A stretch of 64,000 nucleotides of DNA from a virus (IMGVR_UViG_3300012347_000211:1-64000); one strand, 5' to 3'. Positions 1 through 48,891 are shown, counted from the first letter of the stretch. The notes: a model not told the origin generated them from the letters alone. Made by a program: numbers and translations.

Positions 1-37
1 ACAGTGACACGAATCTTGACAGTAATGTCGAATTGTT

Positions 38-292
38 TCATTCTCCAACTCCGAAGTGTCGTTTGATGTTGTAACGTATTGCTTCACAGGCTGCCTCGCC
101 CTCTGCGTACATATTCTTGTCAATAAAAACGTCTGATGCCAAGCGTTGGCCGAAGTACACCGCTCTTCGCTCGTCACACAACGACATACACTCCTGCACA
201 ATCAACTCGGCGAGATATTCTATCCCGAACTCTTCATTGATCGAATCAGATATACCAGCCTGTCCAAATAGTTCAGCCATTCGTTCGTTCAT
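38..292 (-). CDS. Paralog family A member (MNER..FAELIV.EC..HFG)
   Basis: MNERMAELF / YLAELIVQEC / IKRHFGVGE. Confidence 0.85.
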   Translation of the reverse strand: MNERMAELFGQAGISDSINEEFGIEYLAELIVQECMSLCDERRAVYFGQRLASDVFIDKNMYAEGEAACEAIRYNIKRHFGVGE

Positions 293-447
293 AATCCTAC
301 CTGCTTTCCAAACAAACAATACACCTCGAACCACTTGGTCGGAGGGTTCTCAATAAAATACGGATTGACGCGGAAAGACACTTCCCAGTCCCTTGAGAAC
401 TGAAAGTGTCTTACACCAAATCGAATGTTGAACCAAAGATTACTCAT
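289..447 (-). CDS. Small hypothetical protein (52 aa, not in ORF track)
   Basis: Read manually as MSNLWFNIRFGVRHFQFSRDW...KQVGL; ATGA overlaps on both sides. Confidence 0.65.
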   Translation of the reverse strand: MSNLWFNIRFGVRHFQFSRDWEVSFRVNPYFIENPPTKWFEVYCLFGKQVGL

Positions 448-626
448 GGGTTCATCCCAAATCCAGAATCATCCAACGCATCCATCTCTTTCGTCCAACG
501 CTCAAGGAGTGCACGGAATTGCTTGCGGTTACCCTCATCATGGAAAGTATCACCGCTGAACACAGCAGCATCAACTGCATCAAGGTGGTCATCGTCTAGT
601 TGTTTGTATGCTTGATCGTATGTCAT
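444..626 (-). CDS. Hypothetical protein
   Basis: ORF in early array. Confidence 0.7.
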   Translation of the reverse strand: MTYDQAYKQLDDDHLDAVDAAVFSGDTFHDEGNRKQFRALLERWTKEMDALDDSGFGMNP

Positions 627-629
627 TCT

Positions 630-836
630 TTATACTGCCGAACAGATTAGTTGCTGAGGTTCGGCCAATGCATCCTGTAGACGCTCGACCTCTTGCTTGG
701 ACGACTCATACATGCTGATCAACCATTCGATTCGCTCAACAGTATTACCTTCACGCCAGTCCTTGCTACCTTCATACAATTCAGTCGGCAACAAGTCTCG
801 GATACGCTTCATTTCAGCTTGCAATTGTGTTTTCAT
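630..836 (-). CDS. Hypothetical protein
   Basis: Start MKTQLQ preceded by GGAG. Confidence 0.7.
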   Translation of the reverse strand: MKTQLQAEMKRIRDLLPTELYEGSKDWREGNTVERIEWLISMYESSKQEVERLQDALAEPQQLICSAV

Positions 837-837
837 T

Positions 838-1062
838 TCACTCTCCTCGAATCTGAATGATGATCTTGCCAGCCATCGTAGGATATTTGGCACGATCATC
901 GATGCCAGTGTAGTCAAACATTTCGCAAGCCTCGAAGTCGACGGGCTTCATCGTCATGTAGGACTCATAGTTGACAGTTCGTTCAACACCACAATGAACT
1001 TCAGCGTCTTGCGGGAGTGTCTTCATCCACTCGATCATTTGTGCAACAGTTATCATCATCAT
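838..1062 (-). CDS. Hypothetical protein, family B N-terminus (TV.(E/Q)LI..L..LP.D.EV)
   Basis: ITVAQMIEWMKTLPQDAEV. Confidence 0.7.
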   Translation of the reverse strand: MMMITVAQMIEWMKTLPQDAEVHCGVERTVNYESYMTMKPVDFEACEMFDYTGIDDRAKYPTMAGKIIIQIRGE

Positions 1063-1080
1063 TCCCCTATTCGATCACCA

Positions 1081-1109
1081 AGTATACACTCAGTTGACCA
1101 AACGTGCAA
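1081..1109 (-). promoter_or_regulatory. Sigma70-type early promoter
   Basis: gTTGCAC-17 bp-TATACT in an intergenic gap. Confidence 0.7.
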
Positions 1110-1114
1110 CATGG

Positions 1115-1345
1115 TCAGCAACCAACTCCGAAGTGTTTCCAGATCTTATCGCGGTAGTCCAACCAACCATGATAATATTGAGCTTCATCGATTTGCATTG
1201 GGTCTAGGGTCAGCGTTGCACATTCCCGAATAATCAGCTCAGCGAACTTCTCGTTGTATGTCTCAATCCACTTATCAACACTGATTCCATGTGGAACCTG
1301 TGTCTTAGCTTGATCGGACAGCTGCTTGATTATCGTCTTGTTCAT
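1115..1345 (-). CDS. Paralog family A member
   Basis: MNKTIIKQL / EKFAELIIREC / IWKHFGVGC. Confidence 0.85.
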   Translation of the reverse strand: MNKTIIKQLSDQAKTQVPHGISVDKWIETYNEKFAELIIRECATLTLDPMQIDEAQYYHGWLDYRDKIWKHFGVGC

Positions 1346-1485
1346 CTCTTTGTCTCATCTCGTCCATGTATCGTGAATACACTTCACACAGATCCTTGTT
1401 GCCAGAATACACAATCAGCTCACGCAAATCCGCAGCCAAACGCTCAAGCGCAACGTCAGTCGCAATCTTTGCCAGCAATTCACCA

Positions 1486-1653
1486 TCAATCATCGGTCAA
1501 CTCGAAGTGTTCTTTTAACTTATCGATGCATTCCTGACGTTTCAGGACCATGCAGCACTCCTGGACAACCAACTCTGCAAACTGTTGCAGCCTTGGCTCA
1601 CTGACCATCTGGATCTTTGCTTCGACTGCCAATTCTTTAAATCGCTCATTCAT
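1486..1653 (-). CDS. Paralog family A member, minimal version (55 aa, not in ORF track)
   Basis: Read manually as MNERFKELAVEAKIQMVSEPRLQQFAELVVQECCMVLKRQECIDKLKEHFELTDD. Confidence 0.85.
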   Translation of the reverse strand: MNERFKELAVEAKIQMVSEPRLQQFAELVVQECCMVLKRQECIDKLKEHFELTDD

Positions 1654-1664
1654 AATCAATTCCT

Positions 1665-2903
1665 TTACTTCATGCCCAACGCAGCTTTACCTGCCTTCAA
1701 TGCTTCCAGTGCTGTGGGACCAGACCACCTGCGAGTACCTTCCTCGTCACAGTACGGAGCAAGCGTTCGCTCTACCGACCACGCATGCTTGATGTTTGCC
1801 TCATCAGTAAAGCATGTCTGTGGTGGATGGCGCATGATTGCCCACTCCAACGAGTCAAGTGCACGAATCACTTCAAGTGCATCAACATGATCACTGGTCA
1901 ATGGATGAGCGTACACAGGAACATACCCAGCTGGCAACAACTGCTTCGTGAGTGAGTCTTCGGTGTGCACTAGTGCGTTCTCGGCCCACACACTCATCCC
2001 GTTACAGTGGCTGAGCTCTTCCAACTCATCCACATGCACGTATGCTATAGGATCAAATCGGTTCATTCGCACTCTTCCAAGTACTTGTAGTAGTCTTCGT
2101 TCGTGTTGTATGTGTATTCAGTGCCGTCAGCGAGGATACAATGTGGCCCAGGAGACTTTCCAGGTGTAAACTCATATAAAAACCACGTGACATCCTCAGC
2201 CATATCGCCAAATAACGCATTGGTCAACAGATCATTCTGGGCGTATAGCAAGTTGACGTATGTGTTATCGAAGAATGCTGCATTGATATCTTGCGGAATC
2301 GTTGCAAAGTACTCATCTCGCTCCGCGCCCATCTCTTTCATCTTGCGGACAACTTCTATCAATTCTGGTTTCATTGCTTTGCTCCAAACTTTTGTGAGAG
2401 ACGCTCAAACTCAGCCTTCTCTGCTTCTTCACGTTTACGGATATGCTCTGCCTGCTCAAGCATACGCACCTTCAGTTCATCATCAGTCTCTTCACGCTCA
2501 ATGGACAATTCATAACGAGGTGTTGGTTCGTTATCGTAATCATAATAAAAACGAGAATTGTAATAGCAGTGAGCATCTGGCCCATGTTGCTCGATTAGGT
2601 CTTGCACGCGTTGCAGAATCAACGACAATGGGCCTTCGAATTCCCATGTAGAGATATCATCTACACGAGTTTTAATCTTTAATCGTTTCGGCGTCATGCG
2701 TCCACCTCAATATATCCACGTGGGAAGTAGATCATCTTATCGTCTTCCCAGTACTGTTCAGGATACTCAAAACAGAACTTAGGACCAAACAGCTCAAACA
2801 CACGTTCACGGTCGCCCTCGACTACAGCAACACAGTCCTTATCGAACACCTTGCCGTTGACCTCATGGAAGTGGCCATGTCCAAATGTCACATACGTTTT
2901 CAT
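1665..2903 (-). CDS. Four hypothetical proteins (1665-2066, 2063-2374, 2371-2697, 2694-2903)
   Basis: Translationally coupled ORFs. Confidence 0.75.
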
Positions 2904-3148
2904 ACATTAGCTCCGAAGTGTTGTTTGATAGTCTTGGCACAGTCTCTAGGACCACTACTAGAGTCGGGTTCATCATCCCAACGCCACGTGTCATGGCAGC
3001 TTAAACACACCACCATGCACTCCTGCACGATTAGCTTAGCGAACACGTCCTTCGCCTTTAACGCCTGTTCTACACTCAAATTGGTGTATGTTTCAGGCAC
3101 AGCAATGTCTAGAGCCTTAGCCCACAATCTTTGATACTGATCAGTCAT
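2900..3148 (-). CDS. Paralog family A member
   Basis: DVFAKLIVQEC / IKQHFGANV. Confidence 0.85.
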   Translation of the reverse strand: MTDQYQRLWAKALDIAVPETYTNLSVEQALKAKDVFAKLIVQECMVVCLSCHDTWRWDDEPDSSSGPRDCAKTIKQHFGANV

Positions 3149-3613
3149 ATTGTAGTCTCATCTTCTTCAGATCAGCAACAGACTCGATAGGGGCCTTGCC
3201 ATGGTAGAACTCGGACCTCAACTTAGCCCATTCCTCGGTCGTGGGGTGACTGATCTTCTCCCACCCACATACAACACCTACCCACTCAGCCCACAACCCA
3301 CATTCAACCTGTGGATTCTCCTGCAGATACTGCGCGTTCTGTTGCTCTTCAGTTAGTTCGTCCCACATTACATCACCTCTAATGCACGAAACACAGCAAC
3401 GTCTCTTTCTGTTGCCTGGCGGACATACACCTCGTCTATGCTTCCGTGGCGGTGATGTGGATCGTCCATCCAGACTTGCACTACGCCATTATTAGTCCTC
3501 AAGTACTCACCAGGAGCAACGAGGGAAAGCAGATATGCCTTCGTTATCCGCTTTGTTTCTTCTTCAGATATCCGAACAACCTCGGACACTGTCTTGTGTA
3601 TTGTGATATCCAT
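3141..3613 (-). CDS. Two hypothetical proteins (3141-3368, 3368-3613)
   Basis: Coupled ORFs. Confidence 0.7.
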
Positions 3614-3615
3614 CT

Positions 3616-3885
3616 CTATACCATCTCGAATCGTTTCTTGATCTTCAGCACAGCAGCTTCCAACAGCTCGAGCCCTTCAAAACTACCAATGAAGTCGTCT
3701 GGAAATGCCTTATGATATTCGGTCGGCTCCACAGCCGCAATACAGTCTCTGATGATCAGCTCAGCAAACTTATCCAGATTCACTGATTTGGAATGCTTCG
3801 TCACTTCGCCACCATCGGGACTAAAATCTTTGTATGTGTATGTTTCTTCGGCCTGATCAGCAAGCTCTTTGATGCGTCTATTCAT
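3616..3885 (-). CDS. Paralog family A member
   Basis: MNRRIKELADQA / DKFAELIIRDC / IKKRFEMV. Confidence 0.85.
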   Translation of the reverse strand: MNRRIKELADQAEETYTYKDFSPDGGEVTKHSKSVNLDKFAELIIRDCIAAVEPTEYHKAFPDDFIGSFEGLELLEAAVLKIKKRFEMV

Positions 3886-3892
3886 TGCTTCA

Positions 3893-4204
3893 TCACCTTA
3901 CTTCCTCAAGCATACTAATCACAAAGTCTATTGCCGCCTGTTCGTTTGGCCCTAGCATCTTCTCTTCATTCTTGAATCTGCGCATGAAGTAACTGGCGCG
4001 CGATGCGTCCATGTTAGATGGTTTGGTTGATTGTGCAGGAACGGCAAAGTACACAGGAACGGCAAAGTACACAGGAACTGTGCATTCACCATATGGAGTC
4101 TTGCTGAACTCTTGCTTGCCGTGGATTGCATTATGACATAGAATCGTATTCTTTGCCAACTCGCTGATGTAGAATCCTGGTACTGGTTCGTTCCATTCGA
4201 TCAT
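3893..4204 (-). CDS. Hypothetical protein with in-frame 6-aa tandem duplication
   Basis: VPVYFA-VPVYFA-VP. Confidence 0.7.
   Translation of the reverse strand: MIEWNEPVPGFYISELAKNTILCHNAIHGKQEFSKTPYGECTVPVYFAVPVYFAVPAQSTKPSNMDASRASYFMRRFKNEEKMLGPNEQAAIDFVISMLEEVR
4036..4078 (+). repeat. 18-bp perfect tandem repeat, about 2.4 copies
   Basis: CAGGAACGGCAAAGTACA x2 + CAGGAAC. Confidence 0.95.
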
Positions 4205-4431
4205 GTTAGTGCTTTCATTGTGATTGTGAAGGGTGCGTGCTCGAGCAACATTACCCAAGAGCCATACAACACAGCACCAAGGATCAATGTTCCGATCTTT
4301 GTTAGAAGTGAGTTAGGCACACCACCGATATTATACTTGCCTAGGTTATTGATCGCTACCATCATATACGCAACAGTAGCATATGACAATACAATCACCA
4401 ATGCAGCAAATCCGATTGCAGCTAAAATCAT
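4201..4431 (-). CDS. Small membrane protein (2 TM)
   Basis: Two hydrophobic stretches. Confidence 0.7.
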   Translation of the reverse strand: MILAAIGFAALVIVLSYATVAYMMVAINNLGKYNIGGVPNSLLTKIGTLILGAVLYGSWVMLLEHAPFTITMKALT

Positions 4432-4440
4432 TCGTGTACC

Positions 4441-4692
4441 TCAGGTTGGCTTATCGTCGAATGGAGGAATTGTTGACCACTCTCCGTCTAAGTCCGATTC
4501 TAGCATAGCACATACCTTGTTGGCAACATCCTCGAGTGCTGGCAAGTCTTTGGCGAGCTGCTCATAGTTCCAAGAGAACCTGATGTTGACTACACCAGAC
4601 TCTTCCAGTCTCTTTTGCACGGAAGCAATCCTTGCTCGTGTCTCTTCTGATAATGATGTGTCCGATACCAGACGTTTGTCCATAAAATTCAT
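4441..4692 (-). CDS. Hypothetical protein
   Basis: ORF in array. Confidence 0.7.
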   Translation of the reverse strand: MNFMDKRLVSDTSLSEETRARIASVQKRLEESGVVNIRFSWNYEQLAKDLPALEDVANKVCAMLESDLDGEWSTIPPFDDKPT

Positions 4693-5024
4693 TTCGTCTC
4701 TTTCAATTGTTTCAAACGCTTCTCTAACCGCTCAATCTCGCGAGCAGTCGCAGCCTGGTATCGTTCCAGATCAGTTTCTTCACTGACCCAACGTCTGATA
4801 TTCTTCTGGCATGACGTAGTAACCATCAGTGCCCTGATCGGGAAGATGCCAAACGATTCCATATCGTGATCCGAGCATGCCTGGATGCACTCTTCCACAA
4901 TCAGCTCAGCAAACTTATCCATATACAGTTTGTTGAATTCTTTCAGTCCACCATCATTCATCGCCACCTCGAGTGCAGCGAAGTCGGCAGCCTTGGTAGC
5001 CAGTTGATCGATTCTTTTATTCAT
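4689..5024 (-). CDS. Paralog family A member with coiled-coil C-terminal extension
   Basis: MNKRIDQLA / DKFAELIVEEC. Confidence 0.85.
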   Translation of the reverse strand: MNKRIDQLATKAADFAALEVAMNDGGLKEFNKLYMDKFAELIVEECIQACSDHDMESFGIFPIRALMVTTSCQKNIRRWVSEETDLERYQAATAREIERLEKRLKQLKETK

Positions 5025-6553
5025 ATGATGGTTGATTCTTCGTGTACTCAATCATCTGAAAGCAGGCCATCACGCCGTCGACTGTCTGACAGTCAGCAAC
5101 GAACGTGCCCTTTTCGTTACGGATGTAGAATCCATTTTGCATCACTTCTACGCCGTACTTGTAGTTCTCAAGAGCTCGTCGTGCACTGAGAAACTTCTTG
5201 ATCAAATCACATTCGCTCATAACAACCCCTTATGGATACAACACAGCGTGCTTGTTAGCACCAGTACGTTTCAACTCTTCCCACTCTTCTTCGTCCATGT
5301 CTGCTTCATCAGCATCCCATTCTGTCGAATACACAGTGGTGTCCCAACCTCCGCTGACGTGGATCACATCATAGTCTATGCCGCGCAATGGACTATACCC
5401 ATTGCCCTCAGAGTCTCTCTGAAGGATCAATTCAACGTCTGGTTTTGATAACAGTAGTTGTGCTAGTTCATGTGATGTCATTCTGAGGCCTTCGGATAAC
5501 GGATATCGCTTAGTAAGCGAGCATTGATATTTCCTTGTGCATCACGGACACGGACGAATACACGGCAATCGCCTTTGTGGTCGTGATAAATTGAGTCCCA
5601 CACATAGTATCCAACAACTGTATGTGTGACCCATGTCTCTAGGCTGTTCAGATAGATCTGCACTCGGCTGCCAATCTGAGGTAGCAAGTCGCCCTCCACT
5701 GGTGGTAGAGCTGGAGGCACCTCATCATGCTTGGCCATCAATTTAGCATCATACATGCCAGCATCATATCCAGCGATGAAGTCTGGACGCAGCTTCTGGA
5801 TAGGCTCATACGGAACACTTCCGCCACCTCCCTCTAACACATCGAGGAACAGTTTCAGATAGCCGATCGCTTCTCCGATCGCTGATCTGCCATCTTGCGA
5901 CGTGCTTATGTTGTTGATGTGCCCGATCACATACGGGATCGATTCTTTCACATTCTTATATTTCATGGTTTGCCTTTAGAATGGGATATCATCATCCCAG
6001 ATCGAGGGATAGACAACTGGCTTTGGTAGTGGGGCGACGTAGTTCTCATTGTCAAAGTTGTAGAATGCTTCCCGCCACTCGCCAACCTTATGACGCAATC
6101 GGTCTTGGTTGTCAGTTAGGATCTCCATCTTGTCCAGAGTTGTATAGCTACCGCTCGGAGGATCCCATACTGTTATGTGTCCATTGAAGAACGTCCCGTC
6201 CCATGCACCATTAACTACACGGAAGTCGAAGTCTGATAGACTACGCTCCTGCTCAACTACAACTAGCAATTCGGGCCTGACACGAGTACCCAACATCAGC
6301 ATCATAGCTCTCTCCAATCATGCAACTCACACATACCATGCTCAAAGTCAAACAACACAACTCGTTCCATGTCAGGAACAGTACATGCATACGCAACCAT
6401 TGTGCTGATTGGTTTCTTCAACCACTGGCGAGTGTTCCATGGATGGCCGACAGCCGGGCGTTGCCACTTGCAATTGCAGCAGCATCGTCCGGACGAATTG
6501 CCATCCTTCATCTCCCATCCTTTAAAGCACAGGTCGGGAGTCACGCCACTCAT
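5017..6553 (-). CDS. Five hypothetical proteins (5017-5220; 5230-5481 family B; 5478-5966; 5976-6305; 6302-6553 Cys-rich)
   Basis: Coupled ORFs; the last has CCCNC and further Cys. Confidence 0.7.
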
Positions 6554-6789
6554 TTTGTTGGGATGCACTGCATTTGAAAACCACCTTGACCGCCGCCACT
6601 GTAGACAGCAATACAAGCCATGCCATTGTCGGTTGTGAACTCATATGCACGAGCATCATAACCATACATCTCGATCTTGTACTTCTTTACTTGCTTGGTT
6701 GGCCAGCCGGAGGTAGCAACAGAGTCAACTAGGCCAGCCGGAGCTGCACTAGCAAACAACATCAAACCAATTGCGATAATCTTTTTCAT
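6550..6789 (-). CDS. Small exported protein
   Basis: Signal peptide MKKIIAIGLMLFASAAPA; a Cys pair in the mature part. Confidence 0.7.
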   Translation of the reverse strand: MKKIIAIGLMLFASAAPAGLVDSVATSGWPTKQVKKYKIEMYGYDARAYEFTTDNGMACIAVYSGGGQGGFQMQCIPTK

Positions 6790-7283
6790 TGTGCGTTTCT
6801 CCAAACTGCTTTCTCTACTAACTCTTCAAGTGTCGTGCCTTCGTGGATCATCACGGCATCCAACATCATCTGCAACGTGCTGACGACAAACCCACTCGCT
6901 GCTCCCCAATAGATTGCCTTGTCCAGTACTTCTAGGATCTGGATTGCTGTTGGATGTTCATCCCACTTTGCAACCAACTCACGTAGGATTGGATCCATCT
7001 GAGTGTCAGGTGCTTCCAAGAACAACTGCTTTAATCCACTCAGGTCGTTCTTATTGTCTGTATTATTCATTGTGTCTTTCTTGACAGGGTTCTTTAACCT
7101 AATGATGTAGTGACCAAACTTGTCTGGTGCTTTGTAGAATGGGATCTTGCGAAATGTGTAGTATCGCTCCAACCACCACGCTTGTGCCTTGCCGTAGTAG
7201 ATGATCAGATAGAACAACCCGATCAGCGGCCACGCTATCAACCAATCACCGATGTTTTTAATGCGTGTCTTCAACTTTGCCAT
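6786..7283 (-). CDS. Hypothetical protein with N-terminal TM
   Basis: ORF; may be a fusion of two small genes (internal Met at about 7070). Confidence 0.6.
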   Translation of the reverse strand: MAKLKTRIKNIGDWLIAWPLIGLFYLIIYYGKAQAWWLERYYTFRKIPFYKAPDKFGHYIIRLKNPVKKDTMNNTDNKNDLSGLKQLFLEAPDTQMDPILRELVAKWDEHPTAIQILEVLDKAIYWGAASGFVVSTLQMMLDAVMIHEGTTLEELVEKAVWRNAQ

Positions 7284-7500
7284 ACTCGGTTCCGAAGTGT
7301 TCGTTAATCCTGTCTCGCTTCTGATAGAAGTTCAGCCACTGATACTGGATCACTGCATCACCTTCTCTTGGTGTGATTATACGTAAGGCCTCTGCTAGGA
7401 TCAACTTGGCAAACTTTTCTTTATCGAACGTGTGGGTCTTGTTATCCCACGTGCCGTAGTCTTCACACCGATCGATGAGATCTTTAATCTTTTCGTTCAT
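7258..7500 (-). CDS. Paralog family A member
   Basis: MNEKIKDLI / EKFAKLILAE / INEHFGTE. Confidence 0.85.
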   Translation of the reverse strand: MNEKIKDLIDRCEDYGTWDNKTHTFDKEKFAKLILAEALRIITPREGDAVIQYQWLNFYQKRDRINEHFGTEYGKVEDTH

Positions 7501-7894
7501 CTTTTGTTCTCGCAAACAGAGCATTGTATCTCGCTTGAGACTCCAGAAACTGCGGAGACTTCAAGCTGGCCTCTTGGTATCCACCATCGCCCGCCATCGC
7601 ATCAGCACCGGCCATGATGTTAGCAATTTGTGATTCGTATGCTGATGGAGGCAATGGCAACGCAATGCCGTACGCATCCGCAATGTTGTTGATGTGGATT
7701 TTAGATTGTAGATTCTCTGGTGATCTGACACCGTTGCGGGGCATGTGCAACTGAATCATTGCAATGCAGTCCTGTGCAACGAGCGTTGCGAATCGATCAA
7801 ACACAGCAACTAGGTCTTCTCTGGATGCAGGATCGCTGCTCCACCAATCATCCAACCCAGATTGTGTTGCTAAGTCAATAGTTCGTTCGTTCAT
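7484..7894 (-). CDS. Paralog family A member with C-terminal extension
   Basis: MNERTIDLA / DRFATLVAQDC. Confidence 0.8.
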   Translation of the reverse strand: MNERTIDLATQSGLDDWWSSDPASREDLVAVFDRFATLVAQDCIAMIQLHMPRNGVRSPENLQSKIHINNIADAYGIALPLPPSAYESQIANIMAGADAMAGDGGYQEASLKSPQFLESQARYNALFARTKDERKD

Positions 7895-8025
7895 CATTTG
7901 ATCTCGGCATACACGATCTGCACAATCCTGTACATATTGAACTTGTAGCTGTCGGGCTCTTCGAACACAATACTGACCTGCGGATAGTCAGGATCATCGT
8001 CGTATATAATCCAGGCTAGTTTCAT
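7894..8025 (-). CDS. Small hypothetical protein (43 aa, not in ORF track)
   Basis: MKLAWIIYDDDPDYP...VYAEIK fills the gap with overlaps. Confidence 0.6.
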   Translation of the reverse strand: MKLAWIIYDDDPDYPQVSIVFEEPDSYKFNMYRIVQIVYAEIK

Positions 8026-8390
8026 TTGTTAAACCACAACACATGAGTTGCCCACTCTGGGCACTCGACCCAACATGAGACGTGTGCGTACTGTGTCTTC
8101 GTTGCCCAGTATCCTGAGCCATCATCTGAATTGAACCATCCAGCGTCCAACGCCTTTTCCCATTCATCCAAAGAGAACAGATCGCCATACTCCGGGTGGT
8201 CCATCATTGTGGGTTTGTAATCAAGACCATACAACTCACACAATTGCTCACGTTCCCACTCATCCAGGTCTTGAGTTCCCATCACGTCGCGGAGCAACAA
8301 CTCAGCGAACTTGTTTGAATTAAACCAGGGAGGACCATACTGTCTAGCTTCCCAGCATTGTGATTCGAGTTCTTTAATTCGGTTATTCAT
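8022..8390 (-). CDS. Paralog family A member fused to an unrelated Trp-rich domain
   Basis: MNNRIKELE / NKFAELLLRD, then GWFNSDDGSGYWA..PEWATHVLWFNK. Confidence 0.8.
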   Translation of the reverse strand: MNNRIKELESQCWEARQYGPPWFNSNKFAELLLRDVMGTQDLDEWEREQLCELYGLDYKPTMMDHPEYGDLFSLDEWEKALDAGWFNSDDGSGYWATKTQYAHVSCWVECPEWATHVLWFNK

Positions 8391-8399
8391 CACGTACCC

Positions 8400-9497
8400 T
8401 TAGTATGAGATTCCGCCAATGCGGTCAAATGTGCTGATGCCACGCAGCTTCGCAGTGAGGATCACAATCTTCTTGCGTTTGTATCGCTTGGATTTGATGT
8501 CCTCATCAGTAACATACTCATTCATTTCCCAGTTGTGGTACTTCTTGTAGCATGCACGGGAATGTTCATCGTCGAATGAACTCATTTGGTATGTCTTGGG
8601 ATCGCCCTCAACATCACGGCAATCCTCCAGACGGACCATCTCCATGAAGTATGGAAGATTCATCTTGACCAGGTCAGTCTGAATCAATCCGCCAACATCC
8701 ATGTAGTCGCCAACATAGCCGTTCCACAGCTTGATCTCAGGATCGCCCTCGATCGTATTGAGCATCTCGATTAGTTTAGATTTTTTCATCGCGTACCAGA
8801 CATGCGCGCAACATTGCATGCGCAACTGCTTCCATTTCTTCAACGGAACCGAAGCTGAGGAATATCTCTTGGCCAGTATACTCTTTGTATGTGACGGAAA
8901 GCACTTCGCCAGCGCATACCTCATACTTGTAGTCATCATCGGATGATACTGTGAACGTCACTTCTGTTGTAATCATAACCCAAACTCCTTCATAATGTCA
9001 TCGGCTACATCTTTTCAGTATACTCACTATACCACCGAGCCACGATTGCTCCTACACTTGGTCACGTTTTTGTACACAAGCGATGGCAGACTGCCACTCA
9101 ATCTCTTCGACGATCTCGCACTCACTGATTGGCGTTTGTGTAATTACCTGAGTGCGGTCCCAACTAGGTTCCATGCTGACTGTGGCATAGCAATCATCTT
9201 CGGTTGTCCAGTGTGGAAAGGTGTACAGAGTCCTGTTAGTAGGTCTGTGAATGAGTTTGTAGTATACGTTGGTCATCTTCTGCCCTTAATCACAACGAAG
9301 TCGAGCTTCTCGTCCAGCCAGCTCCAATCAATGATCCACAACATGACAATGAGATTCAACACAGGAATCAACGAACACAACGTCATTGTGGCGAACTCGG
9401 GAAATCTGATATCATATCCTCGTACCCACGCATGCTGATACATAAACGTCGGTAAGGTCACGACAACACTGACCACATATAAAATTAAATATTCCAT
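8400..9497 (-). CDS. Four hypothetical proteins (8400-8789 family B; 8776-8976; 9052-9276; 9273-9497 membrane)
   Basis: ORFs in array. Confidence 0.7.
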
Positions 9498-9907
9498 CAC
9501 TTCATTCCATTCTTAGGATAGACAATCACGATCGGCTTCAGTTGCTTTTCAGCATAGTCGTGAGTATACCATGTTCCACCTTTTGGTTGCCACTTATCAT
9601 GAAGGGGCACCACAATTAGAAGATGAGTGTCGTCGACGATGTTGCGATCTCGTTGAAGGTATCCAAGGGGACGGCGGGACTCATCGCTTGGAAAGAATCC
9701 ACGTAGATTGTCTGATGTTGGGGGATGACATATGATCCTGAACCCCAGCTCACGAGCAATTGCTGCTGCTTCTACATCAACGCCTTCGCAATCGCCGTGA
9801 TGGAATTCAGCAGGACCCTTCTCGATCACCAGTGTCAGGATACGACGAACACGACGCGCTTGGTGCTCGTTCATCCCTTCACGGGTACCTGTGATTCCTA
9901 TCTTCAT
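9497..9907 (-). CDS. Stand-alone SLOG (YspA/DprA-like) domain protein
   Basis: IGITGTR, HHGDCEGVD, RDRNIVD and GGTWYT motifs. Confidence 0.75.
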   Translation of the reverse strand: MKIGITGTREGMNEHQARRVRRILTLVIEKGPAEFHHGDCEGVDVEAAAIARELGFRIICHPPTSDNLRGFFPSDESRRPLGYLQRDRNIVDDTHLLIVVPLHDKWQPKGGTWYTHDYAEKQLKPIVIVYPKNGMK

Positions 9908-10094
9908 GGTCGCTCTTTCAGTAGTCGGTACCGGTACATTCCAACCTTAATGACATATGTGCGCATCAGTCTGACTTTTTCTTTGTCGACATCAGACCAA
10001 TTCTTGTCGCCAATGTTGTGCATACGAATAAAGAACTCTTTCGAGTCCTCTATCATCCGTTCGCTGTTTCGCCATTTGGCTTCCCAGCTATCCA

Positions 10095-10505
10095 TCAATA
10101 TACTTTCTTGGCCACCATTGCAGCTAGCTTGCCATCATACTGACCAGCATAGCGTTCTTTCAATGCCTTCATAAACTCTGGCATACTCTTAAAGTAACCA
10201 GCAATGATGGTCAACTGAACTTCATCGAGTTGTTGAGGAAGGAACTCTTCCAAGATCATTCGCTCGATCACATACAACTCGGCATTCTGACCACGTGTAG
10301 TCAGTGCGTCGATCGTTTCGTTTGTGTTCTTGATGAACTTCTTAACCACAGCAACGACTTCTGCGTCTGTAGTCTCACGGTCACCAGCATTCTTGCCAAT
10401 CATTGCAGCTTCGCCGAGCAATGTGGTATACAGGCTAGCGATTGGCAAGCCTTCTTTACGAGCAGCAAGTTGCTTCTCTTTAATTTGCGCAATCAACGAC
10501 ATCAT
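10095..10505 (-). CDS. GatB/YqeY domain protein
   Basis: QLAARK..TTLLGE..TDAEVVAVVKKFIK..E..ILEEFLPQQL..DGK. Confidence 0.8.
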   Translation of the reverse strand: MMSLIAQIKEKQLAARKEGLPIASLYTTLLGEAAMIGKNAGDRETTDAEVVAVVKKFIKNTNETIDALTTRGQNAELYVIERMILEEFLPQQLDEVQLTIIAGYFKSMPEFMKALKERYAGQYDGKLAAMVAKKVY

Positions 10506-10720
10506 TTCACCTCAAAGTGTTCTTTCAGCATCGCCGCAAAGTAATCTCTACGATAGCGGTCGCTGCTGGTCATAATATGATCGACACACTCTTGAATGAT
10601 CATCTTAGCAAAGACTTCTTCAAATTCAGGAGCGATCGAGAAAGGGTGATTATCTTCGTTTGGAGCGTTCCTGACAACATCCCAAGCCCTGTACTTTAGT
10701 TCAGTTATCTTTGAGCTCAT
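10502..10720 (-). CDS. Paralog family A member
   Basis: MSSKITEL / EVFAKMIIQEC / LKEHFEVK. Confidence 0.85.
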   Translation of the reverse strand: MSSKITELKYRAWDVVRNAPNEDNHPFSIAPEFEEVFAKMIIQECVDHIMTSSDRYRRDYFAAMLKEHFEVK

Positions 10721-10731
10721 ATTCAATTCCA

Positions 10732-11339
10732 TCACTCATCGTGGTCACTGAAGCGGAATCCGCACGCCTCGAGATCGAGGTCGTCTGGAAACGTCAGTAC
10801 CTCAGAAAAACAACCTTCGTTTGCCCCGTACATCTCAAGGTCGACTCCGTCATCGCTATCGAGCAAACGTTGAGCAACTGCCTCATCACGGAACCATTGA
10901 ATGTGGCAGGACCCATCGCCACTGTCTACTGTCAGTCCAAATACTACTTGTGCCATATGTTACTTACAAATTTGTGTGATCAATTCAGCAGGAGCGCTCG
11001 ATGTATTCAAAGCCTGAGCTACTGCCACACAGCAATCGTTCCTGCTTTTCTGGTCGATAGTTCCAGCAACAATAGCAGTTCCCATCACTGCTACCACCAT
11101 TAAACAAACCCATCCAGTATCGCTCATTTTACTGCTCCTACGTATTGCGCAATCATATACCAATCAGGGGCACCTTCACCAGGCTTGATTGGATTATATT
11201 TTTCGTTGTAGTCGTTGACGTACTTGCGAGCTTCTGCCTCATTATCGAAGTAGATGCTCTCATCAATCTTACTACCCCAACCACGCTCACTCTCAATGAT
11301 GTCAACGCGGTATGTCGTCACGTGTTCAACTCTCGCCAT
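10732..11339 (-). CDS. Three hypothetical proteins (10732-10956; 10960-11127 membrane; 11124-11339)
   Basis: ORFs in array. Confidence 0.65.
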
Positions 11340-11808
11340 ACAACTTCTCCTTAACAGCAACAATCAATTCATCCATCGTCTCTACAACCTGGATACCCCA
11401 ACGCTTGCAGAGGATGTCTACGTTGCCTTTGCGCCAGAATCCCATAGGACAGCACACAACGACATTGTATGGATTGCGGAACCCAGCAACGAACCCCAAT
11501 TCGAGCAACGTGATAGGAGACTTCGTGTCTGGATCAAAGTAGAACAACACCATATTGGATTGCTCGAGTCCGTCCAGCTCCCATGTCACTTGTTGATTGA
11601 ACTGCGTATTGTGGATGCTCTGCACCCAGCTCGAGTCCCAATCATCACGACGAGGGTTGAGGAACGTCAGATTCGGTTCATCATCAAAGGCATTGACCAA
11701 ACGGGTCTGCCAGTTTTCAGCAACACCCATCTCGATCGATCCAGCCATGAAGACTGTATTGTCAGTTCCTGGTGGAACGTCGTGCGGTGCTTGTATTTGA
11801 ATTGCCAT
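11326..11808 (-). CDS. Nucleoside 2-deoxyribosyltransferase-like protein
   Basis: VFMAGSI..WQ..NPRR..QVTWE..SPITLLELG..GF.RKGNV. Confidence 0.85.
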   Translation of the reverse strand: MAIQIQAPHDVPPGTDNTVFMAGSIEMGVAENWQTRLVNAFDDEPNLTFLNPRRDDWDSSWVQSIHNTQFNQQVTWELDGLEQSNMVLFYFDPDTKSPITLLELGFVAGFRNPYNVVVCCPMGFWRKGNVDILCKRWGIQVVETMDELIVAVKEKLYGES

Positions 11809-14800
11809 TATCTGTTACCACTAAGTTTACTTGAACACACGACCTGTGTTGTACACCTGGCCCAATATGCTTTGCCATTCGAGCACAGTCCTCATATGTC
11901 TGCACAGGAGGACTGTACATCACAACTGATCCTGATGTTGTAATCAGGAACCATACCAAGACCGAGTTCACTTGAATTCCAATCGGACACAAGTCTTGTT
12001 CTTGAACTTGCGGTATGCAAGCTTGACGAAGCCTGGTTCGACTGGTGGCTTCTCTGGGCGGCTATTATACCAATCCGCAAGAACAGCGACACCGATGAAG
12101 AATCCAATTATGCCCATCACGAACAAGAACAGCGCCGTGTGCAGCTCAAGCATGGCCGCCCCTACCGCCACTTCGTATAAGTTGAACAACGACAACCCTA
12201 CCCACACTGTAGCAAGTGCGCCCGCGATAACTGCAAGCAATAACAGGAACGACCCTGCAAACACAGCACGAGTGTATTCACAGATGTCAGAGCCGTCTTC
12301 AACCCAGATACGCGTTGCACCGTAGTTTGCCAAGCGGAAGTGCCAGGCTGTGTTGCTTAATGTAAATGCTTTCATTTTGATTCCTTGTTATTGATTTTCA
12401 CGATTTGTTCTAGCTGTGTCGAGCTCAACAATAAACCACACCAACAGACACGCCACGACGATAACGATGGATGTAACTAAAGTGTACTCCACCATGCAGT
12501 AGATGATAGATCCGAAGAACGCAAAGGCGCATGCGATCACTGCCAACACGACGCCCAACGACTTTAGCCATTCCCAGGCCACGGTTCGCATCGAATCAAT
12601 TGCGTTCATCACATCTTCACGTGCTGGGAGATTGATCTTCATCATAGTATTCTTTCAAAATTGATCGGATGTCCTCGGCATACAGACGAGCAACGCCGTC
12701 CGACACACCTGCAGATTCCATCCTATTGGCAAGGAATCTTAACATACCTTCCGGAGTGGTTGCAACAGGAATATTACAACCACAATCACAACCTGGTTTA
12801 ACGATTGCCATATTATTCAGTCACCTTTACCCACCACCGTGTATCATATTTGCTTGGACGGCCATATAAGCCTGGCTCGAACGACAGAGTAGACAAACAA
12901 ACCTGCAGTGCTGTACCTGTTTGTCGGTGAAGCACCATAAAGCGTTCAACTTCCTCTTCTAGCATATCGTCGTCATCGAAGTCGACTGTCTCGCCAAGGA
13001 TCTCAGCGACATCGCCAGCAACAAACGAGTTGCCATATGGACGCTTGATGTCGATTACGGGAGCACCGTCGTATGCATCGTCATTAAACCTTGCATACAT
13101 GGCCTGCAGTAGTTTGACGTGTTGTTCAGTCAGTTCAAATGTTTCGTGGTATGTTGTCATAATTTAATCCGCGACCGCCCATGCTACCCATGTGCCATCA
13201 TGTTGTTTAGATGTTTCCCAGTATACACGACGATTGCCACAATCACAACGGCGGTCAACGCCGTCCCATCCAGCACAGTTCTCACCTTCGTCCCACGCAT
13301 CCGCACAGTTCTGGCCGTCAAAGTCAACGTACCCCTGTTCTTCAGCATCCTTCATTGCGGCATCGATTGCTTCTTGTTGAGTGGCGTACATCTTAGTTCC
13401 AATCTCGCTTGGCACACACGAAGCTCACCGCCTTGGTTAGCTGTACGCGCTGGCGTGCAATGTCCTTCTCGCATGCTGGGATTGATTTGTATTCAGCCAC
13501 AGTTTCAACTTCATACACACCTTGGTTAGGTTGTGCTTTGGATTCGATTAGAGCAACAAGGACATATTCAAGCATTACAAAATCTCCGAATCAACTTCAT
13601 CAGTTTCGAGAACGAACATCGCCTCGACGCCATCTTCCCAGCCTTGGCCATGATCATACTCCACTCGGCCAATGCCTTCGCAGAAGTGTGAGCCATAGCG
13701 TGCCACTTGCTCAGCAGTGAACTTAACCAAGTCCTCAATGTAATCGACACGGAAGATCGAATCGGAGAACTCTTTGATCATTTCCTCTTCGTCGATTCCT
13801 GGACGGAATTGGACTTTCACTGTGTGTACTGTTCTAACTTCGACTTCGTATGTCATTCTGATTCTCCAACCTTTGTAAATGTACGGACAATGACCAGCTT
13901 CTCTTCCTCAACGACATCGAGGTCGTATGCTTCGCTGATCCACTCAACTGCTTCTGGTTCAGCATGCTTGCCGCCACCATACCAATATGTCCAACCGACC
14001 CATGTGCCGTCTGGTGCCTGAGCTGCCACGCTCTTTGATTCGAGGTGACGTGAGTATGGACTCGGGATGTCAGTTTCTACTTCACCTTCACGAATCTCAT
14101 ACATTGCATCATACAGACAATCTTCGAGTTCGTCAAATACCTCATCGACATTGTCAGCCGTGACTTCTTCAATTACTTGATCGTCACCCCACGTACGGTA
14201 GAGCTCGATCGCCATCCATCTGATTTTTTGTTCTGGTGTCATGCTCGGTCTACGCTTTGTACAAAGTCCATTGCCCACTTACCGTCACGGAAGTCGCCGC
14301 GTGGATCAGAAGATCCTTCCGTACCGAACCCATCCATGCTATGGTACTCGTCCAACAAGCCGTCCATACTTTCGACGAGATAGTCAGCGAAACCTTCGTC
14401 GTTGATCACTTCATCAGTCATGCGTTGCAATACCATCAACACACGTTGTTGGTTCATTGACAAATCTTCTTCATCCATTGCGTTTCTCCTCTGTAATTCC
14501 AAGCTCACCCTTAATGATGTTCAGTGCTTCCTGCCATTCAAATCGACAACCTTCACACTCCATACACTTAGGCACCTCAGGACCTAGTACGTTGTACAGA
14601 TCCCGTAACACGTTGCGATAGTACTCATCCTTTTGCATTCTTAGCTTCCCACATCTTGCCCTTCATACCACAAGCAGCAAAGAATCGAATCTCGCGCTCA
14701 GTACGGCAATCCGACCCGTTGAACACAGATGCAGCCAATGCCCAAGCGTCTTTCTTATTCACTTCATCGTTGATACATCGCAACTGCCAATGCGAAGACT

Positions 14801-29829: not shown

Positions 29830-30993
29830 ATGCCAACAACACTACAGTTCAAAAGGGGCAACACAGCAGTCGCTAGTGCATTCACTGGGGAGATTGGTGA
29901 GATTTATATCAACACCACGACAAAAGCTATTCACACCCACGATGGAGTTACTGCTGGAGGAGCTGCAATGCAGACCGCGGCAGGCCTATCCGCCAACGTT
30001 GCTACCCTAACTGCTAACAACACATCATATGTTGGATCGGTCACGGCCGCTAACGTCGTATCCAATAGCCAGCTCAGCTCGAACCTAGCTAACTACCAGA
30101 CAACCGCTGGCTTATCTGCCAACGTTGCAAAGCTGACGGCTAATAACACCTTGTACCTCGGTGGCATTGCTGCTAACCAATACGCATACGCTAATCAGGT
30201 TGGTGGCAGTAGCGGTCCTACTAATTATTTCAAAGGTCTACAGATCCTCGAGGACGTATACGAGGCAGTTGGTGCACAGAACATCATTTTCGAGAGTAGC
30301 GACGACAGTGTGTTAATCACTAGAGGCAACAATGTGTTGAATTTCAGAGTCGTTAGCAGTAACGGCAGTAGTACCGGATGGTACTCGAAGGCCAACACAA
30401 ACGCGGGGGCGACGAGTTTGTCTGTTCCTGCGGATACTTTGATAGATGGCGCAAACTACGCGCTACCACAGTTGATCGTTTTTGGCGATGATATGTCAAA
30501 CTCATATGGATCTCAGCCAACAACAGACTCTATGAGCTGGGAGCAAGTATTGAACAGCGGGACCATATACGTATGGAAGTGGACTAACCCATCAGTCGCG
30601 CCTGCAGGTATCAATTTCGAAACTGGTGGGGGTGGTGTACGGTTTGCTATGGCTCCAAGTTGGGATGCTACTCATATAGGCGAAACCCAATTCTCGCCTA
30701 ACCAGACATTTATGAGCTCAGTGGTCAATAAGTTGAACGGGGTCAACTCTTTGCCGTATTATCTGGCAGCGACATCAGAGGTGCACGGCATCACTGTTAT
30801 TACGCAGTTGGGCGTTACAGCAACTGCAGTTAATTGCACTATACACGAAACAGTAACTGGATACAGTGACACGTATGTTGTGTGGTCAATGACTAAGGCC
30901 CAAAGCGACCTAGTGTTCGATATGGCCGATATGATTACGTTCGACTCTACCGTGGCGCACTCGACGTACTATTGGTGGAAGCAGACGGTATAA
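29830..30993 (+). CDS. Tail fibre / receptor-binding protein with Mtd_N-like N-terminus
   Basis: LQFKRG..FTGEIGE..HDGVTAGG. Confidence 0.75.
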   Translation: MPTTLQFKRGNTAVASAFTGEIGEIYINTTTKAIHTHDGVTAGGAAMQTAAGLSANVATLTANNTSYVGSVTAANVVSNSQLSSNLANYQTTAGLSANVAKLTANNTLYLGGIAANQYAYANQVGGSSGPTNYFKGLQILEDVYEAVGAQNIIFESSDDSVLITRGNNVLNFRVVSSNGSSTGWYSKANTNAGATSLSVPADTLIDGANYALPQLIVFGDDMSNSYGSQPTTDSMSWEQVLNSGTIYVWKWTNPSVAPAGINFETGGGGVRFAMAPSWDATHIGETQFSPNQTFMSSVVNKLNGVNSLPYYLAATSEVHGITVITQLGVTATAVNCTIHETVTGYSDTYVVWSMTKAQSDLVFDMADMITFDSTVAHSTYYWWKQTV

Positions 30994-31003
30994 GGAGATA
31001 TAA

Positions 31004-31264
31004 ATGACAGCAGAAATAGATCCAGCAGTGCTGGCAGTGAGGACACGCAACGCTAGTATGTCGGTCCGCAGAGACCGTGATATGAGAATCAAAGACGTCC
31101 AGTGGCGAATTGAACGCCATCAGCGCGAACTGCGTCTTGGCATTCCTACTACAGAGTCTGATGAAACAATGCAGGCTATAGATCAGTATGTCGCTGATCT
31201 ATGCAGCGTACCAGACCAACCTGGATTTCCTATGGAAGTTCAGTGGCCAGTAAAGCCAACATAA
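31004..31264 (+). CDS. Tail fibre assembly chaperone
   Basis: VRRDRD..I..VQW..Y..DL..VPDQPGFP..VQWP.KP. Confidence 0.8.
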   Translation: MTAEIDPAVLAVRTRNASMSVRRDRDMRIKDVQWRIERHQRELRLGIPTTESDETMQAIDQYVADLCSVPDQPGFPMEVQWPVKPT

Positions 31265-31277
31265 CCAATAGACTACT

Positions 31278-31574
31278 ATGACAATAGCATCACAATTAGC
31301 TGACTTCATATCAGCAGCAAACGTAGCTTCTGTAGCCAACGTTGCTACGTTCACGAACGACACATCATTCGGGGCCGACGTTACGTTTTCGAATGGAGCG
31401 ATTGCGGCGAATGGAAGTATCGGCACCGCAGGCCAAGTGCTAGCATCTACCGGCAACGGGACGATGTATTGGACTGATATGTCGGCAGGCGGAAACTCCA
31501 ACTTCTCTGGTTCGTATAACAATCTCACGGACACACCAAACATCATTAGCCCATTCTTGTTGATGGGCGCATAA
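31278..31574 (+). CDS. Short fibre-like structural protein
   Basis: ANGSIGTAGQVLAS..MYW; FSGSYNNLTDTP. Confidence 0.7.
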   Translation: MTIASQLADFISAANVASVANVATFTNDTSFGADVTFSNGAIAANGSIGTAGQVLASTGNGTMYWTDMSAGGNSNFSGSYNNLTDTPNIISPFLLMGA

Positions 31575-31583
31575 GGAATTATA

Positions 31584-31913
31584 ATGGCAGTAACATACAA
31601 AGTTTTAGGACAGGTATCTCCTAGCGCCGACACAAGCACAACTCTCTACACAGCTCCTGCAAACACATCAGCTGTGATTAGTACGATAAATATATGCAAT
31701 CAGGGCGCCAATGATGCTTCTTTCAGAGTTGCAGTTCGTCCTGGTGGCGAAAGTATCGCTTCGAAGCACTACATCGCATACGGAACTACTGTTGGCGCAA
31801 GCGATGCAATTAGTTTGACTATCGGTATCACGCTAGCCGCAACGGATGTAGTGACGGTATATGCAAATGCAACTTCGGTGAGCTTCAACGCATTCGGTTC
31901 AGAATTATCATAA
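31584..31913 (+). CDS. Small beta-sandwich virion protein
   Basis: YKVLGQ..TTLYTAP..STINICN..SFNAFGSE. Confidence 0.7.
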   Translation: MAVTYKVLGQVSPSADTSTTLYTAPANTSAVISTINICNQGANDASFRVAVRPGGESIASKHYIAYGTTVGASDAISLTIGITLAATDVVTVYANATSVSFNAFGSELS

Positions 31914-31920
31914 GGTTACC

Positions 31921-45269: not shown

Positions 45270-45505
45270 AGCAACTTCCCGCGTGCATTAACAGACTCAT
45301 CTGTCCAGCTCTTGCCACATGCGGCGCAGCGCTTATGCGTTCTGGTGGTGGAGTTGTTGGGGCCTTTGAATGTCAGGCCATTGTCGGTGACGACAGGAGG
45401 AGTGTACAACGAAGTTGTTTCGCCACCAATCACCTCAACCATACAATCATCACGGCCACAACCTGGGCCGCCATCTACGAATTCATTTAAAAATTGTTGT
45501 GTCAT
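45266..45505 (-). CDS. Small Zn-ribbon-like protein
   Basis: CGRDDC ... CAACG. Confidence 0.6.
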   Translation of the reverse strand: MTQQFLNEFVDGGPGCGRDDCMVEVIGGETTSLYTPPVVTDNGLTFKGPNNSTTRTHKRCAACGKSWTDESVNARGKLL

Positions 45506-47217: not shown

Positions 47218-47220
47218 CTA

Positions 47221-48279: not shown

Positions 48280-48288
48280 ATGTGAGTA

Positions 48289-48891
48289 TTAGGTAGTAGG
48301 ATTAGTACTATCTTCTGGCTCTTCAATTAATTCAACAGGAGCATCTTCTTCAATGAACTGATCGATCCCCTTCTTCTTGCTTTTCTTGCGCTTAACTTTT
48401 TGTTCATCCAGGCCATCTTCAAAGCTCTTGATGAAGTCGTACATATTGTCGTTCGTGATGTCGATCAACGATGATGCGATGTCTCTATCCTCGCCTTGGC
48501 TTTGTGTAACCAAGTCGTTGAAGATCATTGAGTTCTCAAGCGTCTTGTGTTTGATATACAACTGCTTCTTTTCCTTCTGAATCCTACGAAGGAAAGCGTA
48601 GTAGATGATTTGTGTGAAGTATGCGAACGGGTTGTCTGATTTCAGCGGATCGAAGTTGTCGATGTAGCAAATGCAGTTCTCGATACCGTCGCTGACCATC
48701 TCTTCACGGAAAGGATAGTTGACGAAGTTTGGCTTCGTTGATAATCGGTTTGCAATTAGCAGAACACATTCACCGATGTACTCTGGAATCTTTGGCTTGG
48801 GTGTGGAGTTCTTCTTTGATTCCAGCACGCCTGTTCTATACTCTACGATACAGGCATACAGCTGCTTATTGTCAACATAATGTACGGTCAT
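48289..48891 (-). CDS. gp55: Late transcription sigma factor
   Basis: HYVDNK, NFVNY.FREEM.SDGIENC, NPFAYFTQIIYYAFLRRI. Confidence 0.97.
   Translation of the reverse strand: MTVHYVDNKQLYACIVEYRTGVLESKKNSTPKPKIPEYIGECVLLIANRLSTKPNFVNYPFREEMVSDGIENCICYIDNFDPLKSDNPFAYFTQIIYYAFLRRIQKEKKQLYIKHKTLENSMIFNDLVTQSQGEDRDIASSLIDITNDNMYDFIKSFEDGLDEQKVKRKKSKKKGIDQFIEEDAPVELIEEPEDSTNPTT

Follow-up and report, generated by a model that had tools for sequence, protein, structure and literature searches.

How can a family of small phage proteins hold three short blocks constant while the segments between them bear no likeness to each other? The question is raised by the viral record IMGVR_UViG_3300012347_000211, of which the first 64,000 nucleotides (nt), here called the window, were analyzed. 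Between positions 38 and 10720 the window harbors ten open reading frames (ORFs), all on the minus strand, that share the layout block 1 (MNERIKEL...), N cassette, block 2 (KFAELIVxEC), C cassette, and block 3 (IKxHFGVEE). An earlier note, made from the sequence alone, had located these ORFs and proposed that the blocks act as crossover points at which variable inserts are swapped. All ten are present where it placed them, and our comparisons favor, with a probability that we put at about three in four, a cassette-shuffling family in which a constant three-block scaffold carries two swappable cassettes, with joints at the blocks and a natural repertoire of N × C combinations. The copies, with lengths in amino acids (aa) and with E values from the leave-one-out searches described below, are:

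38–292, minus strand: copy 1, 84 aa; block 1 at 254–292, block 2 at 188–217, block 3 with the stop codon at 38–61.
1115–1345, minus strand: copy 2, 76 aa; block 2 at 1220–1249.
1486–1653, minus strand: copy 3, 55 aa, the shortest; block 2 at 1555–1584; E 2.5e-6.
2900–3148, minus strand: copy 4, 82 aa; block 2 at 3017–3046.
3616–3885, minus strand: copy 5, 89 aa; block 1 at 3847–3885, block 2 at 3742–3771.
4689–5024, minus strand: copy 6, 111 aa; block 2 at 4887–4916; degenerate block 3 and a read-through extension.
7258–7500, minus strand: copy 7, 80 aa; block 2 at 7387–7416; E 7.9e-7.
7484–7894, minus strand: copy 8, 136 aa; block 2 at 7766–7795; long C-terminal extension; the most divergent copy, E 0.0035.
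8022–8390, minus strand: copy 9, 122 aa; block 2 at 8283–8312; N type 0 fused to a phrog_14149 domain.
10502–10720, minus strand: copy 10, 72 aa; block 2 at 10586–10615; E 1.4e-5.

Some of these ORFs have alternative GTG or TTG starts upstream; the ATG starts used here, which are those of the earlier note, agree with the family alignment. The start of copy 7 and the end of copy 8 overlap by 17 nt. The shared blocks are real, as a profile built from nine copies regained the tenth each time (E 4e-12 to 3.5e-3), while no ORF outside the family, of the 2153 on the contig, had an E value below 1.3. The ten-copy profile found no eleventh copy on the 122,554-base contig. The C-terminal extensions ascribed to three copies are those of copies 6, 8, and 9, and that of copy 9 is a separate domain, its C-terminal 60 residues (window 8022–8204) matching phrog_14149 with E 5e-17. 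A copy 9-like fusion with phrog_14149 is also found in protein P0125, and P0138 joins the family core to phrog_5437; block 2 is therefore able to link unrelated domains too.

The first sign of exchange came from ORF 8357–8557 of the IMG/VR locus L084, which is 94% identical to copy 1 over residues 1–35 and then unrelated to it until the final HFG. In the DNA, the likeness runs from the ATG to just past block 2, and both sides are unrelated. Upstream of this mosaic member, L084 encodes a 253-aa protein (7599–8360) that has no counterpart upstream of window copy 1, and the same N cassette therefore occupies different neighborhoods. For a comparison across the gene pool, 595 family sequences from loci and two protein searches were collapsed to 565 unique sequences by merging exact duplicates, split after the Cys of block 2, and compared as N parts and C parts over 158,766 pairs. 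The N parts were at least 70% identical in 1717 pairs, whose C parts were less than 40% identical in 1573 cases and at least 60% identical in 26; conversely, 26 of the 442 pairs with C parts at least 60% identical had N parts at least 70% identical. When only genes on different contigs were counted, a restriction that removes most, not all, of the selection bias of the protein searches, N parts at least 70% identical were accompanied by matching C parts in 1 of 89 pairs, and the reverse direction gave 1 of 93.

Individual cassettes show the same pattern. The C cassette of copy 1 (C type 0) occurs in 28 sequences with 26 different N types, often at more than 90% identity, and N type 0, the N cassette of copy 9, is paired with 49 C types across 55 sequences. 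The N cassette of copy 1 is found again in L084 and L004; copy 2 carries C type 3, and P0004 pairs a near-identical C part with another N part. The C cassette of copy 6 clustered apart at the thresholds used, as the three-member type C18; judged by eye and not computed, it resembles C type 1, which sits on eight different N types. Cassette types of at least five of the ten window copies recur elsewhere at 60–95% identity (the C cassettes of copies 1, 2, and 5 and the N cassettes of copies 1, 5, 6, and 9). Module maps are reticulate, with N1 joined to C25, C12, or C16 and N40 to C4 or C25 (L025, L046, L036), and a single genome, L072, holds N5–C5, N14–C5, and N5 with a third C cassette. Collectively, these comparisons indicate that N and C cassettes reassort almost independently in the gene pool, close to linkage equilibrium. 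The C parts are mostly 20–50 residues long, a few reaching about 130, and such wide length differences are explained neither by point mutation nor by a retroelement. The inserts had been described as unrelated among the ten copies and hypervariable; the former holds, whereas the latter does not, as they belong to conserved types that are shuffled, not mutated.

The ends of the exchanged segments were located by blastn between family genes on different contigs, taken with 400-base flanks; matches of at least 75% identity that spanned a whole insert were kept. They covered the N insert only in 131 cases, the C insert only in 68, and both in 4. Of the 131 N-only matches, 82 ended no more than 3 nt from where block 2 ends, and 78 started no more than 6 nt from the ATG, with a further 39 starting within 40 nt upstream. 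Of the 68 C-only matches, 59 started no more than 6 nt from where block 2 starts, and 54 ended no more than 6 nt from the stop codon. Likeness extended into neighboring genes almost never.

Exchange was also seen between close relatives. The window was compared with Logan contigs (k = 31) of the sequencing runs X2, X4, and X5, which come from three studies and are mostly 90–99% like the window; run X1 may be the source sample, and bins left uncovered in X1 were excluded from interpretation. In X2, bases 214–278 of copy 1 are swapped for 86 other bases with both flanks retained (side 151). In X4 (side 255) and X5 (side 62), bases 3772–3865 of copy 5 are swapped for 82 other bases, so that the same N-cassette variant occurs in two runs of different studies with the same flanks on both sides. 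Counted in codons, the block 1 ends of the replacements lie in codon 5 or 7, and the block 2 ends lie within the first four bases of that block; for copy 5, they are at codon 7 and the very first base, respectively. Eight joints have a side of at least 30; five touch family genes, and for three of these both ends fall within blocks 1 and 2. Family genes account for 25% of the stretch compared, and blocks 1 and 2 for about 6%. Loose ends lie at family blocks in 13 of the 24 shown, from 59 in all. At copy 2, contigs of X1 and X2 match positions 1218–1249 only and differ from the window on both sides, and at copy 6 one X2 contig matches 4886–4920 only, again differing on both sides. Breakpoints in relatives, named in the earlier note as a possible refutation, thus do not refute its proposal, with three of the eight usable joints ending in blocks 1 and 2 at both sides. 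The view that conserved blocks are the exchange points is supported by the reassortment of N and C parts, by DNA likeness that ends at the blocks, and by N swaps between blocks 1 and 2 in relatives that are 95–99% identical.

Other joints and indels were recorded in the same contigs. A joint that goes back from 7356 to 4884 is weak (side 32, depth 3). Joints with a side below 30 were not used (67 to 4897, 211 to 833, 211 to 7882, 213 to 1217, 213 to 1603, and, in X5 with side 27, 1489 to 1650); they probably come from other family genes. In X4, a run of small indels at 8312–8347 extends from the first base of copy 9 block 2 through the N insert, a pattern suggestive of a different or diverged N cassette that the alignment has forced onto that of the window. 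Outside the family, ORF 838–1062 is absent from an X4 contig, which has four other bases between the flanks, and 130 extra bases are present at 9013/9014 in X2 and X4.

The blocks match as DNA as well as protein. The identities quoted in the earlier note are all found: a 22-mer at 3755 and 4900, which joins copies 5 and 6 and is the longest exact run among the copies, a 15-mer at 45 and 1122, and a 12-mer at 281 and 7883. Its recurring short motifs are likewise real, while its list of their positions had merged two motifs, a trivial slip: CCGAAGTGT lies at 51, 1128, 2913, and 7292, and CTCRAAGTGT at 1501 and 10511. Block DNA forms the leading dispersed direct repeats of the region. In a chance test, the same ten proteins were recoded 2000 times with codons resampled from the usage of 72 neighboring minus-strand genes. 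An exact run of at least 22 nt arose in 0.7% of resamplings; 23 shared 12-mers were observed versus 3.6 ± 3.4 expected (P = 0.0005), and identical residues were encoded by the same codon in 332 pairs versus 288 ± 14.5 (P = 0.002).

Across the 304 family genes with DNA, codon homozygosity for the main block residue was 0.71 in block columns versus 0.48 for the same residues in inserts, and the dominant block codon is frequently a minority codon in inserts. The frequencies in block and inserts, respectively, are 87% and 30% for AAC at block position 2, 89% and 19% for CGA at position 4, 68% and 15% for CTT at position 8, 84% and 33% for AAG at position 32, 82% and 21% for GCC at position 34, 90% and 18% for GAG at position 35, 85% and 28% for TTG at position 36, 97% and 32% for GGA at position 84, and 95% and 44% for GTT at position 85. 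Block DNA identity is thus above that given by amino acid conservation plus codon bias, in both the resampling and the frozen codons, with an excess that is modest within the genome. The block DNA, about 30–40 nt per block, is thus conserved as DNA beyond the needs of the protein. Possible causes of the frozen codons are homogenization by exchange, selection for homology itself, or overlapping signals.

Structure prediction places the cassettes on a helical frame. The AlphaFold model of copy 1, based on 120 aligned relatives, has a predicted local distance difference test (pLDDT) score of 91 and helices at residues 3–12, 20–52, and 56–80. That of copy 5 (pLDDT 93) has a helix at 3–11, a predicted β-hairpin at 13–35 that corresponds to the N cassette, and helices at 37–52, 56–60, and 68–85. 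In both models, block 1 lies within the first helix, block 2 where the long helix begins, and block 3 where the last helix ends. By register, block 2 should lie opposite block 3 in a helical hairpin, and the cassettes would constitute an insertion between helices 1 and 2 plus the distal part of the hairpin. Both models support the helical scaffold and variable inserts that the earlier note had proposed. The proteins are acidic (median isoelectric point 4.9); block 2 ends in a Cys in 534 of the 565 sequences, and in 163 a C-x3-C occurs at that point. Foldseek found no match in the PDB at E ≤ 1e-3. Matches in BFVD were only to uncharacterized proteins of uncultured phages and those in the ESM Atlas only to hypothetical viral clusters; the wide VIA-align search gave an uninformative best Z of 5.1, and the PDB sequence search a best E of 0.2. 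None of these searches pointed to a function.

The ten ORFs are members of one uncharacterized, very widespread family of small acidic helical proteins of freshwater T4-type phages. A search of 1.84 billion proteins with the ten-copy profile gave 4590 representative clusters (50% identity level) with E ≤ 1e-3; most span 65–95 residues. A word-indexed search returned 305 proteins, none with a Pfam domain and all unnamed or "hypothetical" but for one odd automatic name; one is from an "uncultured Caudovirales phage." Relatives are encoded by 183 stretches of IMG/VR; 80 loci were kept, with 294 copies that lie in each case on a single strand, and 64 of the 80 are multicopy, with a maximum of 11 copies. 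Copies numbered one to seven per record in five records, so that the ten of the window are at the high end. The T4-type capsid protein Gp23 is encoded on eight of ten other family-bearing records, the two without it being 30–32% complete. None of the ten copies reached a curated Pfam cut-off. In PHROGs v4, eight copies had no match, copy 2 a weak one (E 0.0059), and copy 9 one via its extra C-terminal domain only; 38 of 40 homologs had no match either, and the other two matched in extra C-terminal domains only. None of 15 proteins was above a cut-off in NCBIfam, and PADLOC gave no match. No match was found in a collection of cultured and deposited phage genomes, which may lack close kin of the window, either by megablast of window 1–11000 or by tblastn of copy 5 and of P0151. 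A literature search that covered sources other than subscription journals and bioRxiv supplements returned no description of the family, including in passages of a paper on aquatic T4-like phages (PMC7029224).

In the family, the three blocks form the constant scaffold, and the two cassettes are discrete, conserved types that differ in length and even in predicted fold. Different family genes would most likely recombine homologously through about 20–40 nt of block homology, in co-infecting phages as well as within one genome, and the phage's own T4-type machinery would carry out the exchange. The outcome would be an N × C combinatorial protein repertoire, with ten members in this genome. The window covers the initial 64 kb of a linear virus record of 122,554 bases (CheckV completeness 68%), and its Pfam matches to Gp23 capsid (E 4e-148), Portal_T4, scaffold, sheath, Terminase_6, and UvsW_N identify the phage, on sequence grounds, as T4-type. 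Pfam matches also mark a group of T4-type recombination genes at 45502–51178 on the minus strand:

45502–47217, minus strand: gp46-like.
47221–48279, minus strand: gp47-like.
49311–50798, minus strand: UvsW.
50777–51178, minus strand: UvsY (PF11056, E 6e-34).

These genes (UvsY, UvsW, gp46/47-like) are the likely agents of exchange, a role that we infer only from their presence.

Several observations weigh against this account. RecA/UvsX was not found on the 68%-complete record. The window's blocks are only 61–81% alike over 26–38 nt, and with exact runs of at most 22 nt this is short for efficient homologous recombination. No cassette is common to two of the ten window copies. The strain contigs showed no clean block-to-block deletion or duplication between copies, the process by which the earlier note had intervening genes gained or lost. 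One X5 contig lacks the whole of copy 4 (2912–3155) and extends past it in both directions (side 255, microhomology of 2 nt), but the upstream end of this indel lies outside any family block. All of the sequences compared derive from Logan contigs or from metagenomes assembled from short reads, in which mis-joins at shared blocks are possible. The protein sets were chosen by likeness to the window copies, which inflates types such as N type 0, and the collapse of 595 sequences to 565 undercounts whole-gene sharing. Finally, translation signals may, in part, contribute to the frozen codons, through the GGAG of block 3 and through block 1 as the first 13 codons.

In an ordinary paralogous family, protein constraint would keep the blocks while the inserts diverged fast by point mutation and small indels, without exchange. 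The ten window copies do have no insert in common, and the same-codon excess within the window is modest (47% versus 41%). Against such an origin, one N cassette, 85–100% identical between its occurrences, is joined to dozens of C cassettes that are unrelated and differ in length, and the converse is seen too; DNA likeness stops sharply at the blocks; cassettes are replaced within otherwise 95–99% identical flanks; and block codons are frozen on codons rare elsewhere. Plain paralogy is the least probable of the alternatives and largely refuted, and it could be revived only if the N–C combinations were assembly artefacts. That short-read assemblers mis-joined family genes at shared blocks of 20–35 nt to give in-frame chimeras is itself very improbable. 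All of the evidence does come from metagenome assemblies and k = 31 Logan contigs, and because the blocks are in frame, chimeras would resemble intact genes. However, 24 identical family proteins recur, as whole arrays, under different record names (L007/L008, L001/L083, L072/L074, L002/L003, L089/L090), and about 35 of 120 listed protein clusters, by a rough count, were seen on 2–66 contigs. The copy 5 N variant rejoins the same flanks on both sides in two studies, and contigs of 100–360 kb traverse tandem arrays unbroken. Exact block identity, moreover, is mostly below the final k-mer and read lengths of modern assemblers.

Two further alternatives concern the role of the block DNA. If it were conserved as signals, with block 3 serving as a ribosome-binding site or in translational coupling, block 1 in initiation, and block 2 as an RNA or DNA signal, exchange would be a by-product. 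The block 3 codons GGA-GTT-GAA-GAA-TGA, fixed at 95–98%, suit this: in tandem arrays they put GGAG 7 nt ahead of the next gene's overlapping ATGA start, 4-nt overlaps are seen, and starts lie downstream of copies 1 and 3. Block 1, too, is at the right place for initiation, at the first 13 codons. Block 2, however, is mid-gene with no start after it and yet is equally frozen, its AAG-TTC-GCC-GAG-TTG-ATT fixed at 73–94%, mostly on minority codons. We consider it unlikely that signals account for the blocks; such signals would not dispute exchange at the blocks and are compatible with a cassette-shuffling family. A dedicated enzyme, either a homing or site-specific endonuclease or a recombinase that recognizes block DNA, or else a diversity-generating retroelement (DGR), is extremely improbable. 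A sequence-specific enzyme would fit with the very uniform block DNA seen in many phages, and T4-type phages are rich in homing endonucleases. No such gene was noticed beside the family genes in the window, where no systematic endonuclease or reverse transcriptase search was made; the arrays sit in many different contexts, and base substitution alone, as in a retroelement, cannot yield cassettes that differ in length and fold. Shuffling by homologous exchange at the blocks is the reading that we retain.

Among known systems, the elements called PeSLs are the closest in function. They are described as short conserved motifs among small non-essential genes of T4-type phages that act as points of homologous exchange (PMC2839356, PMC4122927). 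As there, exchange occurs between otherwise unrelated sequences and leaves indels or replacements between close relatives (Arbiol et al. 2010; Comeau et al. 2014). PeSLs, however, are intergenic, combine a strong sigma-70-like early promoter with a stem-loop terminator, and move whole genes, whereas the present blocks are coding and move half-genes in frame. A crude scan of window positions 1–12000 found no excess of promoter-like sites (20 versus 18.4 ± 4.8), though this phage's promoters may differ, or of terminator-like sites (10 versus 7.3 ± 2.8). The block-ended replacements in X2, X4, and X5 are a functional likeness to PeSLs, not membership. A second parallel is the gp38 adhesin of T2/T6-type phages, in which hypervariable segments lie between conserved glycine-rich motifs (Trojet et al. 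2011, PMC3157838). In both cases, conserved motifs act as a structural core that separates independent, easily interchanged variable segments within one protein. In contrast to gp38, a single-copy virion protein that binds the host receptor, the present family is multicopy, helical, and, as far as visible, nonstructural. No sequence relation to gp38 was found (no Pfam match above cut-off), and the family genes, at 0–11 kb, are far from the fiber-like genes at 24–37 kb.

Cellular cassette systems, such as polymorphic toxins and pilin or surface-antigen conversion, use conserved flank homology to replace a variable module and so build a repertoire. They usually have one expressed locus with silent cassettes, or toxin–immunity pairs. 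In the phage family, by contrast, every copy is a complete gene, two modules are swapped independently, and the pool is common to phages. DGRs diversify by base substitution, mainly at adenines, at fixed length via a reverse transcriptase and a template repeat. Like them, the family has a constant scaffold with diversity directed to a defined part of the protein, but whole cassettes of differing length and predicted fold are exchanged, so that length is not fixed.

The capsid of the phage is nearest to that of Stenotrophomonas phage DLP6 (70%), followed by Methylophilales, Pelagibacter, and Sinorhizobium T4-like phages (63–66%). Parts of bases 1–10000 are present in 20 public runs from 15 studies, labeled freshwater, freshwater sediment, aquatic, or wastewater metagenomes. 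Small minus-strand ORFs crowd bases 1–24000, resembling the hyperplastic region of T4-type phages. Among the small ORFs are a YqeY-like protein at 10095–10505 (E 5e-9) and a nucleoside 2-deoxyribosyltransferase-like protein at 11326–11808 (E 1e-30). ORF 3893–4258, on the minus strand, contains a perfect 18-nt tandem duplication at 4036–4071 that doubles the peptide VPVYFA; one of the two units is absent in X1, X2, and X4 contigs. Farther along, at 29830–36957, a 387-aa protein with Mtd_N (PF18454, E 3.5e-7) adjoins a 1678-aa protein with five Laminin_G_3 stretches and a He_PIG domain, probably a host-recognition cluster. The best IMG/VR relatives (L081, L082, L001, L083, L017, L005, and others) have few genes in common with the window, in shuffled order, too little for a DNA breakpoint study; relatives sought via ORF 5478–5966 gave none among viral contigs and one of 1371 bases among metagenome contigs.

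As to function, our best guess is that the proteins are small host-directed binders of the early (hyperplastic) region whose specificity would reside in the cassettes. Tentatively, and with more doubt than confidence, one may go further and see here a dedicated in-frame shuffling system, in which the codon-frozen blocks are selected as DNA recombination sites and phages share a library of host-directed binders, for example, counter-defense or takeover factors, that outpaces gene divergence, a phage analog of antigen-cassette systems. What is new in the cassette-shuffling family is that modular-shuffling logic operates in frame, inside a multicopy family that no database names, although its clusters in aquatic metagenomes number in the thousands; such shuffling was known for whole genes, with PeSLs, and for one adhesin, gp38. 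The family offers a natural system in which to study the minimal homology of phage recombination, the possible selection of DNA as a recombination site within coding sequence, and small-protein repertoires, and for protein engineering it would be a natural scaffold tolerant of cassette exchange. For annotation, a family definition is gained, and whole-gene orthology becomes meaningless for these genes.

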